Assembly (NCBI GenBank): GCA_963735805.1
Contig: CAVTMK010000002.1
Span: forward strand, 384,521-448,520
From: an uncultured Verrucomicrobiae bacterium
GTDB lineage: Bacteria > Verrucomicrobiota > Verrucomicrobiia > Chthoniobacterales > UBA10450
Direction: 5' to 3'
DNA length: 64,000 bases
Position 1 is the first letter of the stretch; every line of letters starts with the position of its first letter. A program made the position numbers. Of the stretch, positions 30,001-36,000 are shown piece after piece.

Positions 30001-33000
30001 TCACGAATGCGGGAACAGTCAAAACCAACAGGAACGAGGGGGTCCGCTGACTGGGTAATGATTGTGCGGTTCTGCTGCGCCTGCGCGGAGATTACGCCAA
30101 AACCTAGCAGCGCCAGAAAGACGCCAGCCAGAATAACAAACAGGCCGATTAAAACACGAAGGTTAAAAAACCCAGCTTCGCCGAGGGCACGGCGGACAGG
30201 GGCCGACTGTGGAGTGGAGTGCTGTTTCATGGTGGAGTTTCATTGGAGAGTGCGTGATTTTTGATCGAAACGGTTCGAACAATCAATCATTTTATTTTGT
30301 GCCCTGGACGTGGCAGTTGTTAGCTGCGGCACGAAAAGTGCGCCCAGTCTGTGGCCTAACCCTGTGACTTCTACGAATCAGAGGTATCCGGCATACTTCT
30401 CGGCGGTGGCCCGTCGTAGCCGTGATTGACCGGATCGATCCGCCGCATTGGTTTCTCGCGGGTCTGTTCTTCGATCACGTGTGCCACAAGGCCGGGCGTA
30501 CGGGCGATCATAAAAATGCCGTTGAACGCCGCGAGGTTCATTCCCAAGTCCGCAAGAATGGCGCCGATAGCGCCATCCACGTTGATCGGCAGCGCTTTCT
30601 TTGCGTCCGCGAACGCTTTTTCGACAGCGCGCGCTGCTTTCATATGCGCCCCATCGACACCTGCTTCACGCGCCAACTCGAAAAGCCGCGCGGTGCGCGG
30701 ATCTTTTGTGTGATAGCGGTGCCCAAATCCCGGCATCCGCTCGCCGCTTTCTCTCATCGCGGCTAGCGTACGTGTAGCGGCCTCGTCCAATGAAATGGAT
30801 TCACCAGTCGCGCGATCGGCAATTGCCTTCAGCTGCCGGGCGCAATCTTCAATTGCCCCGCCGTGATGACGATTGATCGACATGATTCCCGCAGCGACCG
30901 CCGCGCTTAACGTTGACCCGGTCGACGCGACAGTTCGCGCGGCCAACGCGCTGGGGGGCGTCGCGCCGTGATCGATCGACGCTACCAAAATCGCATCCAT
31001 CAAGCGCGCGATCGGAGGCGAAGGGAGCTCGCCGGTCAAGATCAGATAAACTGCTGCGCCAAACGAGACGCGTCCCATGAGCTCGGCAATATCGTATCCG
31101 CGCACTCCAACTCTGTTAGGTTCTACGCGGGTGATAGCAGTGGTCCATGTTGCTTTCCTGTCGGCTTCACTCATGAGACTTTGTCCTTTCGTTTGTGCGA
31201 GAATCTTGACGACGGCTTCGGGCACTTCCCCAAATGAATCGACCACAGTCGCACCGGCTTCGCGCAATGCTTTTACTTTACCCTCGTGCGTGCCACGACC
31301 ACCCTCGATGATTGCCCCGGCGTGGCTGAACCGGGTGCCTTCGCGCGCGGCTTTGCCGCCGATATAGGCAATTACTGGCTTGGTGACTTTCTTATCCACA
31401 ATCAGTTGAGCCAATTCTTCCTCCTGTGAAGAACCGATTTCGCCGAAGATGACAATGGCTTCGGTGAAAGGATCAGCCTCGAACATCAGCGCCGCGTCGG
31501 GGATCCGAATTCCAAGCACGGCATCGCCGCCGATGTGCACGATGCTTGAAATGCGCACACCGGCTTGTCCAAGGTAATATCCGGTGCTTGAAGCCATTCC
31601 GCCGGAGCGGCTGATCACTCCCACTCCCTTTGGGACACCGGGTTTGAACCATTGGCGCGCACTTTCCGCGCGGCCTCCGATCATGCCGACCACGGCCTTC
31701 CCCGGACTCAATGCTCCAAGTGTGTTCGGCCCAAGAAACATTGCGCCATTTGCTTTTGCGGCGGCTGCGATTTCCATGGCGTCCCACACTGGAACGCGAT
31801 CGGGCACCAGCACGGTGAGTTTGATTCCCGCTTCAATCGCGGAAATCGCTGCCTCCTTGATGCCTGCCGCTGGCACGAAGAGCACGGAGATATCGATGTT
31901 ACCTAGCGAGTTTACGGCCTCCTGTGGCGTGTTAAACACAGGCACGCCGAGAACGGTCTGGCCGCCTTTGCCTGGGGTAACGCCGGCGACCACATTGGTT
32001 CCATACTCGCGCATCAGCCGTGTCCGCGCACGGCCTTCGCGTCCCGTGATCCCCTGCACCAGAACGCGTTTTTTCTCGTCGATTAAGATTGCCATTTAAT
32101 GAGCGTCTCCGATCAGTTCGTTCAATCCGGGAATATCGAGTTCCAGATAGAACCCTTCAATTCCGGCAAGCCGACACTCGACGTCGCACGCGAGCAATTC
32201 GGAATCCTTAGTGGCGAATTCTTCGTCGGGCAGCGATGGCGCGGGGACGCCTTCTCGATCGATAATCAATCCACCGGAATGCGTTTCGATAGCACTGCGA
32301 ATTTGTGGCCATTGCACGGTCTCAATCCAAAGACGGCCGTTTTTCACGGGAAAAGCAATCGTTGGAGAATCTTTGGTGAACCTGGGTGCACGTGGGATGC
32401 GCGGCTTCCATTTTCTGCCGCTGGCGGTCTCGACAAGTTCACCAAAGCGTGCGGCGATCGCGGCGGGCGTGTCGGTCTTGCGATAACCTTCGACCGGTGC
32501 GCGAAGTAGCTTGGACATGCGATGTAAGATGTCTACCGCGCGATCTTCTGTGTTTCCACCCAGACGAATCACCGCTGGAATATCAAGATCCAGTTCCCAA
32601 AAAGCTTTGGCCAACCCGTACGCCGACCAATATTGCTCCTGGCTGGCGACGCCGGAACCGGAACCGAAATATCCGACGAGTTGCGGCTGAGCCAGAATGA
32701 TTCGCGCGGCGCGGTAGACCTTGGACGCGGACGGATTGCCGCTGGTATCGGTGAAATTAGCGATGGTGAATCCTGCGTTCACGATGGCGTCCATCGACAT
32801 CATGGAACCACCGCCGCCGGCGCCATGAAACCCGGCGAGACCTTTGGAGCCTTTGGGAGCGGCCGTCGCCAACTGTGCAAAATAAAATGTGCCGCGATGA
32901 TCATTTTGTTCCACTGCATAAGCGACGCGTTCGAGAGCAGTCGGTGGATGATCGAATTCGCGCGCGATTTCTATTTCCAGTTCGGGATGACGCGCCACGG

Positions 33001-36000
33001 CGTAATCGTCAATCGTGATCCGGCAATCGGTTGCGAGAAACTCGCCCTTTTTGGTCAATACCAGCGGATTGATTTCCAACGACCGCGCTTCCACGCTGCG
33101 CGCCGCCGCAAACAGGCTCCGGATCGCATCGGACAGTTGTTTGGCGTGGGCTGGTGAAAGTCCACTCGAACTGACAGCCTGGTCCACGGCGGAATCCAGA
33201 GGTCCTCGATTCACGTCGCAGGGGATGCGTCGTGTGGCGGCAGCGCGTTCTTCGATACCCGTGCCGCCGCCGGCGGCGAAGATGATCATCGGGGCGCGGG
33301 CGGCGTCATCAATGGCAAACGAAAGAAAGAATTCCCGGTCGATATCGATCTTTTCCTCAACAAGCACAGCTTCGACTGGAAACTGTCCAACTTTCATCGC
33401 CAGCATCCGCGTCGCGTGCTCGCGAACTTCATCTGTTTTTTTGGCGAACGCGACACCACCAATGCCGGCGCGGCCCGTCGTCCATGCTTGAATCTTGATG
33501 ACGACTTCGCCGCCTAGCTTCGCCGCTGCCGCCATTGCCTCCTCAGCGGTTCGGGCTGGGCAGCCGCGTGGGATTTTGAATCCGTTCGCGGCAAGAATGG
33601 CTTTGCCTTGATATTCGTGCAGTCGTGCCATGGGCGTGTGGTATTTCGGATAAAAACGTCCAACGTTCAACCCGCCTTCGCACGAAACTGCGGCGTGCCG
33701 GGAGTCCGACTGATTCCAGGTTTGCGCTCGACTCTCGTTAGCCTGCTTGAGAGTATCCCCCGCGTCGGGGCATTTCCATGTGAATCCATATGCCTGCCGA
33801 GGTTAAAAAAGAAATTCAACTGGAAATCGGGCACGTTCTCTTCATCGACATCGTCGGTTACTCGAAGCTCTCTGTTAACGAGCAACACGCGAGAATTGAA
33901 GAACTCAACGAGATTGTTCGTTCATCCGAGCAATTCCGGAAGGCTGAAGCGGCAAGCCGAATTTTAAGGATCCCTACCGGCGACGGCATGGCGCTGGTGT
34001 TTTACAAGAGCCCGGAGGAACCGGCGCAGTGTGCGTTTGAGATCAGTCGCGCGCTTAAAGAGCATCCTCGCCTGGAAATTCGCATGGGCATTCACAGTGG
34101 GCCGGTCAGCGGTGTTTTGGACGTGACCGAGCGGACGAATGTGGCCGGCGCTGGTATCAACATCGCCCGGCGCGTGATGGATTGTGGCGACGCCGGACAT
34201 ATTCTTCTTTCACATCATGTGGCCGAGGATTTGGAAAATTACGAACGCTGGCGACCATGCCTCCACGACCTCGGCCAGTGCGAAGTAAAACACGGCGTCC
34301 GTGTCCACGTAACCAATCTCTATTCGAACGAAGTTGGCAATCCGCAGCTCCCAGAAAAGTTCCAGGCACTGAGAAAACATTACGAACAGGAACCATTCGG
34401 TTCTCTACATCGGGGTGACGAACCGCCTCTCTCGCCGAACTTACGAGCACCGCGAAGGTGCCAAGGTGGGGTTCGCAGCCAAATATCGGTGCAAAAACCT
34501 GATCTATTACGAACATTATCGCGACATCCGCGACGCGATCGCTAGAGAATCGCAATTGAAGAAATGGTCGCGAGCGAAGAAAATCGGCCTGATCAATCGA
34601 TTGAACCCACGTTGGGAAGACCTTGGTGCTGACGTGTTACATGACAGATAAAATCAAGAGATTTCTCGACTGCGCTTCGCTACGCTCGAAATGACAGAAC
34701 GCGCGATTGGAATGGAAACGCGTATTGCGCCCGCGAGATGCTGCCGAAGGCGACACGCTTGATCTTCATGCTGAGCCTTATCCGTGCTTTCCGTTTAATC
34801 CTCGCCACGGCGAGCAGGCTGTGGTTCTTTTCAGACTTTGAAAAATCGTTGCTTCGCTCTCTCCGAAAGAGGCGGAACACTGATGCAAGAATCCGAAAAT
34901 CGAAAAGTTTCTTATCCACCGACAGCCTGATAATGGCCGAGGCCGCGTTTCCACATGAAGTTTGCCCAGGCCCACGCAAGGAACAGCCAAGCGGTCTGGA
35001 TCACCAACGCTTGCACGAGGTCAGCGCCTTTCAATCGGCCGAGAAAGATCGCGACTGGACAAAACAGCTCATAATAAAACGGCAGCCACTTCATCACGGC
35101 CTGGACTGCAGCTGGCATGATGTCGATGGGAAACATCTGGCCACCGAGGAAGTATTCGAACGAGTAAACAATGAAAACGATGGTGGAGATTTCCAGAATC
35201 CAAAACGCCATCATCGCCAGGCTGTAAGTGATAAAGAATTGAATGAATGCCGCCATTAACATCGACACCGTGGCAAGCACATAGACCAGCGGATCGGCAG
35301 GCAACACGATGTACTCGCGGAAATAAATAAAGATTAACGCGATTGGCGGAAGGGTGACGAAGGTGTAAACGAGGCGGCCACTAAGAAAGATGCTAAAACG
35401 GTATGCGAGATAACTCATTGGCTTGGTCAGAAGCGCATTGATCTGGCCTTCGCGAATATCGGCAGCGATCTGCCACTCATCCTCCGTTGGTGAGACCAGG
35501 TTGCTGACAAGAATCGTGAGCAAGTAGTAATAAATCATCGAGCCGTAGTCGTAGCCGTGCAGCCCGCCGCCGCGCTCCTTGAACACCGCGGCCCAAAGAA
35601 ACACCGTGCCAGCCAGCGGAATCAGGCCAAACAGCGCGCGCAGAAAATAATTCCACCGGTAAACGAACGTGTTCTGCAGTCCGATGTTAAAGACCGAGAG
35701 GTATTTTTCGATCTGTCCCGTGCTCATCAGGATGACTTGGTGGTTAGTTCTACGGCCAGATCGATCGCTGCGATCATGCTGTCGGGACGCGCAATTTCTT
35801 TGCCGGCAAGTTCAAACGCCGTGCCGTGATCGGGACTGGTGCGAGGAAACGGAAGGCCGAGCGTCACGTTTACGCCTTCGTCAAAGGCGTGAAGTTTCAG
35901 CGGGATCAATCCCTGATCGTGATACATGCAAAGCACCGCATCGAATTCGCCTTCAATTGCGCGATGAAAAACTGTGTCGGGGGAAAGCGGGCCAACGATT

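Follow-up and report, generated by a model that had tools for sequence, protein, structure and literature searches.

Architecture of the gene pair

The question raised by this locus is which acid is acted upon, and in which direction, by two genes that together resemble ATP-citrate lyase (ACL). The genome-wide survey's note had read the pair as a two-subunit enzyme of the citryl-CoA synthetase/lyase lineage that either cleaves citrate in a reverse TCA cycle or runs backwards as an ATP-conserving citrate synthase. The pair lies in a stretch of 64,000 nucleotides (the window), and its features are the following.

32096..33631, minus strand: beta subunit, 511 aa, with an ATP-grasp domain (residues 3–191), a CCS-like substrate domain and a ferredoxin-like tail
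32633..32659, minus strand: family-specific substrate loop GSGVASQEQ, beta residues 325–333, aligned with CGGTANNTR of 6hxq_B and invariant in 80/80 loci
32561..32566, minus strand: beta R356-L357, corresponding to R-R in citryl-CoA synthetase; the second residue is Leu in 73, Ile in 4 and Val in 3 of 80 loci, and never Arg
32099..32398, minus strand: degenerate ferredoxin-like C-terminal domain, beta residues 412–511, with 2/8 family cysteines kept
30371..32095, minus strand: alpha subunit, 574 aa, fused to a citryl-CoA-lyase-type domain
31196..32095, minus strand: SucD-like half of alpha (residues 1–300) with CoA-binding domain, Glu219, phospho-His258 and ACL-type SRSGGM
30386..31153, minus strand: citrate-synthase-fold lyase domain of alpha (residues 315–570) with H376, H411, H459, R467, D507, R532 and R551

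Both genes are intact and under purifying selection (dN/dS 0.03–0.12 versus four relatives). The alpha subunit matched Pfam CoA_binding (residues 6–97), Ligase_CoA (161–282) and Citrate_synt (358–551), and the beta subunit matched ATP-grasp_2. The best PDB matches of alpha were 2yv2 and 6hxp, the latter being the citryl-CoA lyase Ccl, to which the lyase domain was most similar (E 2e-57); alpha also scored above the cut-offs of the NCBIfam citryl-CoA lyase and PRK06224 models, indicating a Ccl-type lyase. These results reproduced the domain and structure matches reported earlier, and motifs, domains and PDB matches agree in placing the pair in the citryl-CoA synthetase/lyase lineage as an ACL-like ligase/lyase. 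The two genes are adjacent, as had been noted, but beta precedes alpha in the reading direction, its stop codon abutting the alpha start (TAAATG).

Alignment to SucD 2yv2 showed that phospho-His258 and its Glu219 are present in alpha. The lyase catalytic residues H376 and D507 (aligned to 6hxp and 6qcl) were kept in 52/52 homologues, and all citrate-synthase-family active-site residues that were checked in the lyase domain were likewise kept, which is compatible with oxaloacetate as well as with 2-oxoglutarate. The lyase is fused to alpha in this genome and is a separate protein at most of the distant loci.

Substrate loop and tail of the beta subunit

The beta subunit carries ASQEQ and R-L-G-G-N where citryl-CoA synthetase 6hxq_B has ANNTR and R-R-N-G-P. 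The loop and the arginine after it differ from citryl-CoA synthetase in 80/80 distant homologues, and the loop is unlike that of any solved relative. In comparison with 6hxq_B, the citrate-binding loop (Asn, Thr) and arginine pattern of citrate enzymes is absent from beta; the matching positions of human ACLY are Asn346, Thr348 and Arg379, which we take to bind citrate and which the literature mentions in connection with docking. These differences, and the co-occurrence of the pair with homoaconitase, HICDH-like and PrpD-like genes described below, make citrate doubtful as the substrate.

The ferredoxin-like tail of beta had not been noted before. Six of its eight 2[4Fe-4S] cysteines have been lost and two remain; both ferredoxin Cys motifs occur at 80/80 distant loci, and the second motif in 0/120 close homologues. 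The top VIA matches of a structural model of the tail were ferredoxins, with a Z of only 5.2 (rmsd 2.9, 62 aligned) and with ferredoxin-bearing homologues used in building the model; a Foldseek search gave a blank result. Putatively iron-sulfur-bearing relatives of the pair occur in several other phyla.

Partner genes and co-occurrence

At 80 distant loci, which were chosen by likeness to a single homologue and some of which end soon after the operon, HD proteins were the most frequent neighbours (39), followed by aconitase-family enzymes (36), Icd/HICDH-like enzymes (33) and PrpD (13). In the genome under study all four partner types are found on contig C2, the operon being split in three, and the pair lies apart from them, as it does in 9/10 congeners examined. 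That the rest of the operon is located elsewhere on the contig is a further addition to the earlier description.

The aconitase partner, encoded outside the window, is a fungal (LYS4)-type homoaconitase (TIGR00139, 755 bits against a cut-off of 529.9). Among 150 genomes of the family, the pair was present in 67, homoaconitase in 64, both in 61 and neither in 80, although the significance of this co-occurrence is overstated because the genomes are kin and not independent. The two were at most 10 kb apart in 35 of the 61 genomes with both. A PrpD-like gene was found in 66/150 genomes, 59 of which carry the pair.

The dehydrogenase partner showed mixed affinities. The four best PDB matches of its N-terminal 150 residues were all HICDHs, whereas the two best matches of the full-length protein were Icds, and it fell below the cut-off of every family. 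It shares the motif Y-x-S-P-I-V-x-L-R with S. pombe HICDH (3ty3), and it carries HGSAPKY (26/27) as in Icd 2d1c rather than the HGSAPDI of HICDH 3asj; this NADP-type motif is an Icd trait too.

No locus combined PrpD (13 loci) with a second aconitase large subunit (9 loci), a pattern that the tree reduces to just 2 to 3 changes. Fungal homoaconitases perform only the step between homoaconitate and homoisocitrate, and PrpD catalyzes a syn-elimination (PMC3556520). In the genome under study the PrpD-like gene is convergent with Lat and Pcd, both above cut-off. The module often lies beside lysine-catabolism genes: where homoaconitase and Lat share a contig (32 genomes), they were at most 17 kb apart in 22, and the whole cluster was seen in genome G379. 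Since Lat was found in 134/150 family genomes, the route proposed below would be optional.

Other phyla displayed different surroundings, namely E1/LipB-like and Kor/Hdr/Etf-like genes (named by eye) and sugar ABC operons, and their split aconitases match the broad HacA/LeuC subfamily. Of eight fused homologues in a Chloroflexota clade, seven sit after sugar-ABC/ADP-ribosylglycohydrolase genes, and homoaconitase was not seen in the DNA examined around the eight.

Metabolic background of the genome

Lysine synthesis by the DAP pathway is indicated by DapF and LysA, both above cut-off. Profile searches of the genome found no LysX and no classical homocitrate synthase, with one HMGL-like gene only; thus, lysine can be made without the module. 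The HglS route was found in 0/151 genomes. The acyl-CoA dehydrogenase resembling glutaryl-CoA dehydrogenase fell below cut-off. AcnA-like and Icd-like genes, read by eye, exist separately from the module, and a true SucC is encoded separately from the pair, as had been stated for SucCD. The survey's statement that the only other citrate-synthase-family gene sits in the methylcitrate cluster also held: the single other PF00285 gene is PrpC (C4:237405-238541) in a prpD-prpB-prpC cluster.

Proposed reaction and competing explanations

On the strength of motifs, gene order and co-occurrence, we read the pair as a ligase/lyase of the ACL/CCS superfamily that depends on ATP and probably acts on homocitrate, in one direction or the other; cleavage is the direction that we tentatively favor. 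By analogy to ACL, ATP would phosphorylate His258, the acid would be linked to CoA where alpha and beta meet, and the lyase domain would convert homocitryl-CoA to 2-oxoglutarate and acetyl-CoA. The reaction may belong to a side route of lysine breakdown, in which Lat and Pcd would produce 2-aminoadipate, a putative transaminase 2-oxoadipate, and the NADP-type HICDH-like enzyme would add CO2 to the latter. The LYS4-type homoaconitase would then form cis-homoaconitate and the PrpD-like enzyme homocitrate, which the pair would cleave. A citrate-synthase-fold lyase should use (S)-homocitrate, whereas the form in fungi is (R), and a syn-eliminating PrpD would therefore be needed, as in the methylcitrate cycle. 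The proposed net reaction is 2-oxoadipate + CO2 + NADPH + ATP + CoA -> 2-oxoglutarate + acetyl-CoA, for which we infer substrate, cofactor, stereochemistry and direction. The route would copy the reductive Icd/aconitase/ACL branch with one carbon more, with the pair present in 67/150 sampled genomes of a dominant soil family. As a cautious prediction, the pair could be a homocitrate lyase dependent on ATP, the first of its kind, at the end of a lysine degradation that fixes CO2 and passes through (S)-homocitrate; a literature search found no description of the module. The intact citrate-synthase-type residues, the Icd-like features of the dehydrogenase, the family-wide presence of Lat, the Chloroflexota contexts and the separation of the pair from the module in this genome are counter-points to homocitrate cleavage. 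Ordinary outlets are also at hand (the glutaryl-CoA-dehydrogenase-like gene, an OGDH-type E1 and the glyoxylate shunt).

The same substrate could be handled in reverse by an ATP-forming homocitrate synthase (2-oxoglutarate + acetyl-CoA + ADP + Pi), which we regard as rather unlikely. Homocitrate would then feed 2-oxoadipate, NADPH and CO2 and, further on, glutaryl-CoA, giving an oxidation of 2-oxoglutarate with a gain of NADPH and ATP, or a C6 precursor. Dehydrogenases of the Icd/HICDH family usually run in the direction of oxidative decarboxylation, classical homocitrate synthase is absent, and several genomes have a glutaryl-CoA-dehydrogenase-like gene next to the operon. Citrate cleavage by ACL amounts to only about -8 kJ/mol (Table 1 of PMC13147460), so the enzyme is reversible. 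However, there is no LysX-type sink for 2-oxoadipate beside the DAP pathway, the operon faces genes producing 2-aminoadipate, and a net conversion of 2-oxoglutarate to acetyl-CoA would duplicate what the TCA cycle offers.

Action on citrate in a heterotroph is unlikely. The pair would then serve as a citrate synthase that conserves ATP, or as a lyase, either by itself or together with the module, forming a second branch from citrate to 2-oxoglutarate. The intact lyase residues, closest to Ccl 6hxp, and the ACL-type SGG of alpha are compatible with citrate, and the only other synthase of this genome is of the PrpC type. The genera g1 and g187 mostly showed no second citrate synthase, and the pair was found in 16/18 and 12/14 of their genomes, respectively; yet 40/67 carriers have another citrate synthase, judged in many cases from the number of matches, and 9/10 GltA genomes carry the pair, with a true GltA in congeners, so that the suggested replacement of citrate synthase is weakened. 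Six pair-negative genomes with a single PrpC-type match (G361, G362, G428, G443, G446 and G469) would speak against citrate, but three of them have a PrpD-like gene and may lack the pair through assembly fragmentation, whereas G362 and G428 are cleaner cases. Citrate does not need PrpD where an aconitase is present, and the citrate-site residues of beta are changed, with AcnA-like and Icd-like genes available separately. PrpC can replace GltA in Pseudomonas (PMC9765439).

A module for another chiral hydroxy-acid (homo2-citrate, an alkylmalate or a sugar-derived acid) would account for the unusual beta loop and for the contexts and HacA/LeuC-type aconitases of other phyla, but seems quite unlikely in view of the homoaconitase equivalog and the fungal HICDH motif found here. 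2-Methylisocitrate, being a tertiary alcohol, is not oxidizable by such a dehydrogenase, which argues against methylcitrate as the module substrate.

A canonical ACL in hydrogen-fed reverse TCA autotrophy, as had been suggested, is very unlikely and largely refuted. The ACL-like architecture is accompanied by one [NiFe] hydrogenase large subunit, as reported, and by one 2-oxoacid oxidoreductase alpha above the OFOR subfamily cut-off; the earlier KorAB assignment stands to this extent, its substrate going beyond the match. This is the only POR_N gene, and the profile search found no pyruvate:ferredoxin oxidoreductase, in agreement with the survey, although absence from a 94% complete assembly is not proof. 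Malate synthase (glyoxylate shunt) speaks against autotrophy, as do the E1 alpha genes of 2-oxoacid dehydrogenases, of which there are four, and the pair travels with homoaconitase, not with reverse TCA genes. The published Udaeobacter hydrogenase, from a different genome, is of the high-affinity respiratory group 1h (PMC7343977).

If homocitrate cleavage is right, the ACL/SCS superfamily would gain a further substrate, and some very abundant soil bacteria would degrade lysine by a route so far undescribed, with uptake of CO2 by heterotrophs. ACL-like pairs of this kind would not be markers of reverse TCA autotrophy in metagenomes, and a homoaconitase in a bacterium would not have to indicate that lysine is synthesized with it.

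Comparison with known systems

The pair resembles CcsAB and Ccl of Hydrogenobacter thermophilus (6hxq, 6hxp) in the best match of its lyase domain and in the beta motifs DxRG, GGGGS and ANFTD-x-GNP-x-A-x-K-x-Y, which SucC lacks. It differs by ASQEQ instead of ANNTR, Leu instead of Arg, the ferredoxin-like tail, the fusion of the lyase to alpha, and an operon with homoaconitase, HICDH-like, PrpD-like and HD genes. With AclBA (Chlorobium 6hxj, Methanothrix 6hxi) it shares the two-chain layout, gene order, phospho-His, SGG motif and lyase His/Asp, but beta is distant (E 7e-23, ranked below SucC matches), and the lyase has the Ccl-type HHGGA where ACL has RFGGA. Canonical ACL was rejected on the altered citrate loop and arginine and on the scores for Pfam Citrate_bind (24.8 against 26.8, close to the line) and Citrate_synth_N (34.7 against 83 bits). 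SucCD gave the best single-sequence and fold matches for beta and the alpha half; nevertheless, both were far below the NCBIfam equivalog cut-offs (200.7 against 370 and 264.1 against 336 bits), and the pair adds lyase and ferredoxin-like domains.

The first half of the fungal alpha-aminoadipate pathway (homocitrate synthase, aconitase, Lys4, Lys12) has its likeness in the LYS4-type homoaconitase and the S. pombe HICDH motif. Here, an ATP-coupled citrate-synthase-fold enzyme stands in place of homocitrate synthase and a PrpD-like enzyme in place of aconitase, the dehydrogenase motif is NADP-type, and LysX is missing while the DAP pathway is present. The 2-methylcitrate cycle (PrpC, PrpD, Acn, PrpB) also combines a citrate-synthase-fold C-C enzyme with PrpD and an aconitase-family enzyme, but the module is ATP-coupled, uses a dehydrogenase that decarboxylates where the cycle uses PrpB, and exists beside a separate prpDBC cluster. 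The survey's count of at least 162 of 794 genomes of the order with Citrate_synt next to ATP-grasp_2 may include ordinary genes. Among 24 genomes from other families of the order, 11 have an ordinary citrate synthase within about 4 kb of an ordinary sucC, and the pair was present in 0/24.

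A conserved pair of the ATP-citrate lyase superfamily

Both ORFs were found on the minus strand at the positions that the genome-wide survey's note had assigned to them, and its domain calls on the pair were reproduced.

33631-32096, minus strand: beta, ATP-grasp subunit with a ferredoxin-like tail, ORF of 511 aa
32095-30371, minus strand: alpha fused to a citryl-CoA lyase (Ccl) domain, ORF of 574 aa

Beta is the first gene in the reading direction and its stop codon abuts the start of alpha-lyase. Comparison with four relatives gave a dN/dS of 0.03-0.12 for both genes. The pair is thus real and conserved, and forms an uncharacterised variant within the superfamily of ATP-citrate lyase (ACL) and citryl-CoA synthetase (CCS). 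Alpha retains Glu219 and the phospho-histidine His258, and shares SRSGGM with ACL, whereas SucD has SRSGTL. The lyase domain is of Ccl type, with scores exceeding the PRK06224 cut-offs, and its residues H376, H411, H459, R467, D507, R532, and R551 are kept in 49-52 of 52 homologues. A fold search with the whole model showed only succinyl-CoA synthetase, CCS, and ACL among the matches listed; ESM Atlas matches bore automatic SucC/ATP-grasp names only, the nearest clusters being from Verrucomicrobiota.

Beta has diagnostic motifs in common with CCS (6hxq_B) but carries GSGVASQEQ in place of CGGTANNTR, and R-L-G-G-N in place of R-R-N-G-P. In 80 of 80 distant loci, selected by likeness to one homologue, the GSGVASQEQ loop was invariant and the Leu of R-L was never Arg. 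We take the altered positions to be those that bind citrate in ACLY structures. Sisterhood of the pair to CCS is read from motifs only, because the tree was built without CCS or ACL reference rows. Two beta homologues that miss much of the N-terminal ATP-grasp part and keep a cysteine-poor tail (P0136 and P0138) group with the query in the tree.

The last 100 residues of beta contain two cysteine motifs in all 80 distant loci; in close homologues the second was missing from all 120, and two cysteines are left in the query beta. The best structural matches of the tail were ferredoxins, with weak Z, and a Foldseek search with the tail domain gave no match at E 0.001. Deeper beta homologues of approximately 410-425 aa (P0140, P0143, P0146, P0151, P0157, P0163-P0165, and P0175) are wholly without the tail, and their substrate loop is variable.

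Partner genes and distribution

Nothing in the flanks is related to the pair: one side encodes repeat-rich secreted proteins, and the other side has an ABC-2 permease and an ORF with a cyclase domain. Gene order was compared in 80 GTDB loci from Chloroflexota, Ignavibacteria, Calditrichota, Acidobacteriota, and other groups, the best-ranked 80 among at least 574 candidates. Beta usually comes first, followed by alpha and the lyase, the HD protein, an aconitase-family enzyme, and a dehydrogenase; either PrpD or a second aconitase comes last, these two being mutually exclusive in the loci compared. The operon is unsplit in four relatives (G021, G007, G107, and G379). It is split in the genome under study (G000), where the partner genes are all on contig C2, beyond the window.

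G000:C2:593917-594801 (L129:10918-11802), minus strand: HD protein fused to DUF6958, 295 aa
G000:C2:591164-593146: homoaconitase, matching the homoaconitase equivalog
G000:C2:589034-590185: dehydrogenase resembling homoisocitrate dehydrogenase (HICDH)
G000:C2:560784-562286: PrpD-like protein, facing genes for lysine 6-transaminase and piperideine-6-carboxylate dehydrogenase

The DUF6958 domain lies upstream of the HD gene and is fused to it in frame in G000, while relatives have a stand-alone 199-aa HD protein; owing to an internal ATG, the short form may still be produced.

Among 150 family genomes drawn, related and thus not independent, 67 had the pair, 64 homoaconitase, 61 both, and 80 neither; the unpublished G360, G462, and G482 are counted among the last, and to that degree every family count depends on them. 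The pair and homoaconitase were less than 10 kb apart in 35 of the 61 genomes with both. The PrpD-like gene was present in 66 of the 150, and 59 of these had the pair. None of 24 genomes from other families of the order contained the pair, and a phylum-wide draw found it in one of 300, a member of the same family.

A promoter scan found 1 site against 1.6 expected and thus nothing of use, and a search of a plasmid collection gave no match at E 1e-30. In two RNA runs from one study, 0.10 and 0.07 of the words were present, and assembly yielded scattered short contigs only, which speaks neither for nor against expression.

Substrate and direction

Homocitrate is probably the substrate of the pair, in one direction or the other. 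The dehydrogenase carries the substrate motif of fungal HICDH together with HGSAPKY, which is of NADP type, judging by its Lys-Tyr. By analogy with Si-citrate synthase, the form used would be (S)-homocitrate, and PrpD would be needed for that reason. According to the available text of one study, fungal homoaconitases depend on another enzyme to carry out the homocitrate step, and the elimination catalysed by PrpD is of the syn type (PMC3556520).

Since lysine is made via the DAP route in G000, and neither homocitrate synthase nor LysX was found there, cleavage is favoured over synthesis, and the pair may well work in that direction. Lysine would be converted into 2-oxoadipate by way of a presumed 2-aminoadipate transaminase, and 2-oxoadipate would undergo reductive carboxylation and then isomerisation; ATP-driven cleavage by the pair would return 2-oxoglutarate, to be consumed by transaminases. 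Homocitrate synthesis is unlikely, yet it is a real rival, because the reaction as a whole is expected to lie close to equilibrium; a value of approximately -8 kJ/mol is stated for the ACL reaction in the available text of PMC13147460. HglS might have offered a complementary route to genomes that lack the pair, but it was found in 0 of 151 genomes and so gives no contrast between them and pair-positive ones. We found no description of homocitryl-CoA, of citryl-CoA synthetase with homoaconitase, of reductive HICDH carboxylation of 2-oxoadipate in lysine degradation, or of a homocitrate lyase in a literature search that mostly covered main texts outside subscription journals; the titles listed for homocitrate lyase looked unrelated.

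A citrate role, including replacement of citrate synthase, is distinctly improbable. The note's point that a standard citrate synthase is lacking held, the G000 assembly having a PrpC-type synthase only, and genera g1 and g187 mostly show PrpC only (some with GltA), with the pair nearly always present; G362 and G428 are the only fairly clean pair-negative genomes with a single synthase. However, 40 of the 67 pair carriers have another citrate synthase by match counts, which include 107 matches beyond those listed and in which some second matches may be fragments. GltA is rare (10 of 150 family genomes), and 9 of these 10 carry the pair. PrpC is able to substitute for GltA in Pseudomonas, as the available text of PMC9765439 states. 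The autotrophy by reverse TCA that the note had put forward as one option is very hard to sustain: no PFOR was found, and malate synthase and four E1 alpha genes are encoded. One OFOR alpha is also present. In the available text of earlier work, Ca. Udaeobacter, a name that the note brought to this genome, is an aerobic heterotroph in which ACL was not identified (bioRxiv 10.1101/053942), with a group 1h hydrogenase (PMC7343977).

Other observations

An assembly gap was rejected as the cause of the missing gltA: its usual neighbour gene lies in the middle of a contig, pqq-like genes (named by eye) come next, and there is no N. In the family draw, most genera have PrpC and a second citrate synthase, approximately 45% identical among the matches listed, and in other families of the order citrate synthase adjoins sucC. 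Two genes downstream of prpC in G000 is a beta-lactamase-like ORF (PF13354, PF00144; L001:1-876, minus strand; G000:C4:235935-236837). An IcmF-like mutase/GTPase is encoded by two ORFs in G379 (L163:7495-10490), with homologues at G000:C2:98898-101953; in several genomes of the family, such genes separate the module of pair and partner genes from the methylcitrate cluster.

Two features flank the pair in the window.

22631-30230: series of large secreted-looking BNR/Pro-Thr-repeat proteins with a common N-terminal leader, MKKKS...FFN.R
33790-34545, plus strand: ORF with a guanylate/adenylate cyclase domain, oriented divergently to the pair

A 1024-aa member of the series had no Pfam match; congeners have similar loci and many paralogues. 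In relatives, genes akin to the cyclase-domain ORF recur between and around the module genes.

The same alpha-lyase fusion occurs in Chloroflexota (L076, L077, L089, L093, L096, L103, and L107), downstream of ADP-ribosylglycohydrolase and sugar ABC genes; homoaconitase was not found in the DNA compared around these loci. An esterase gene follows most of them, and together with L082 they form one clade, apart from the query.
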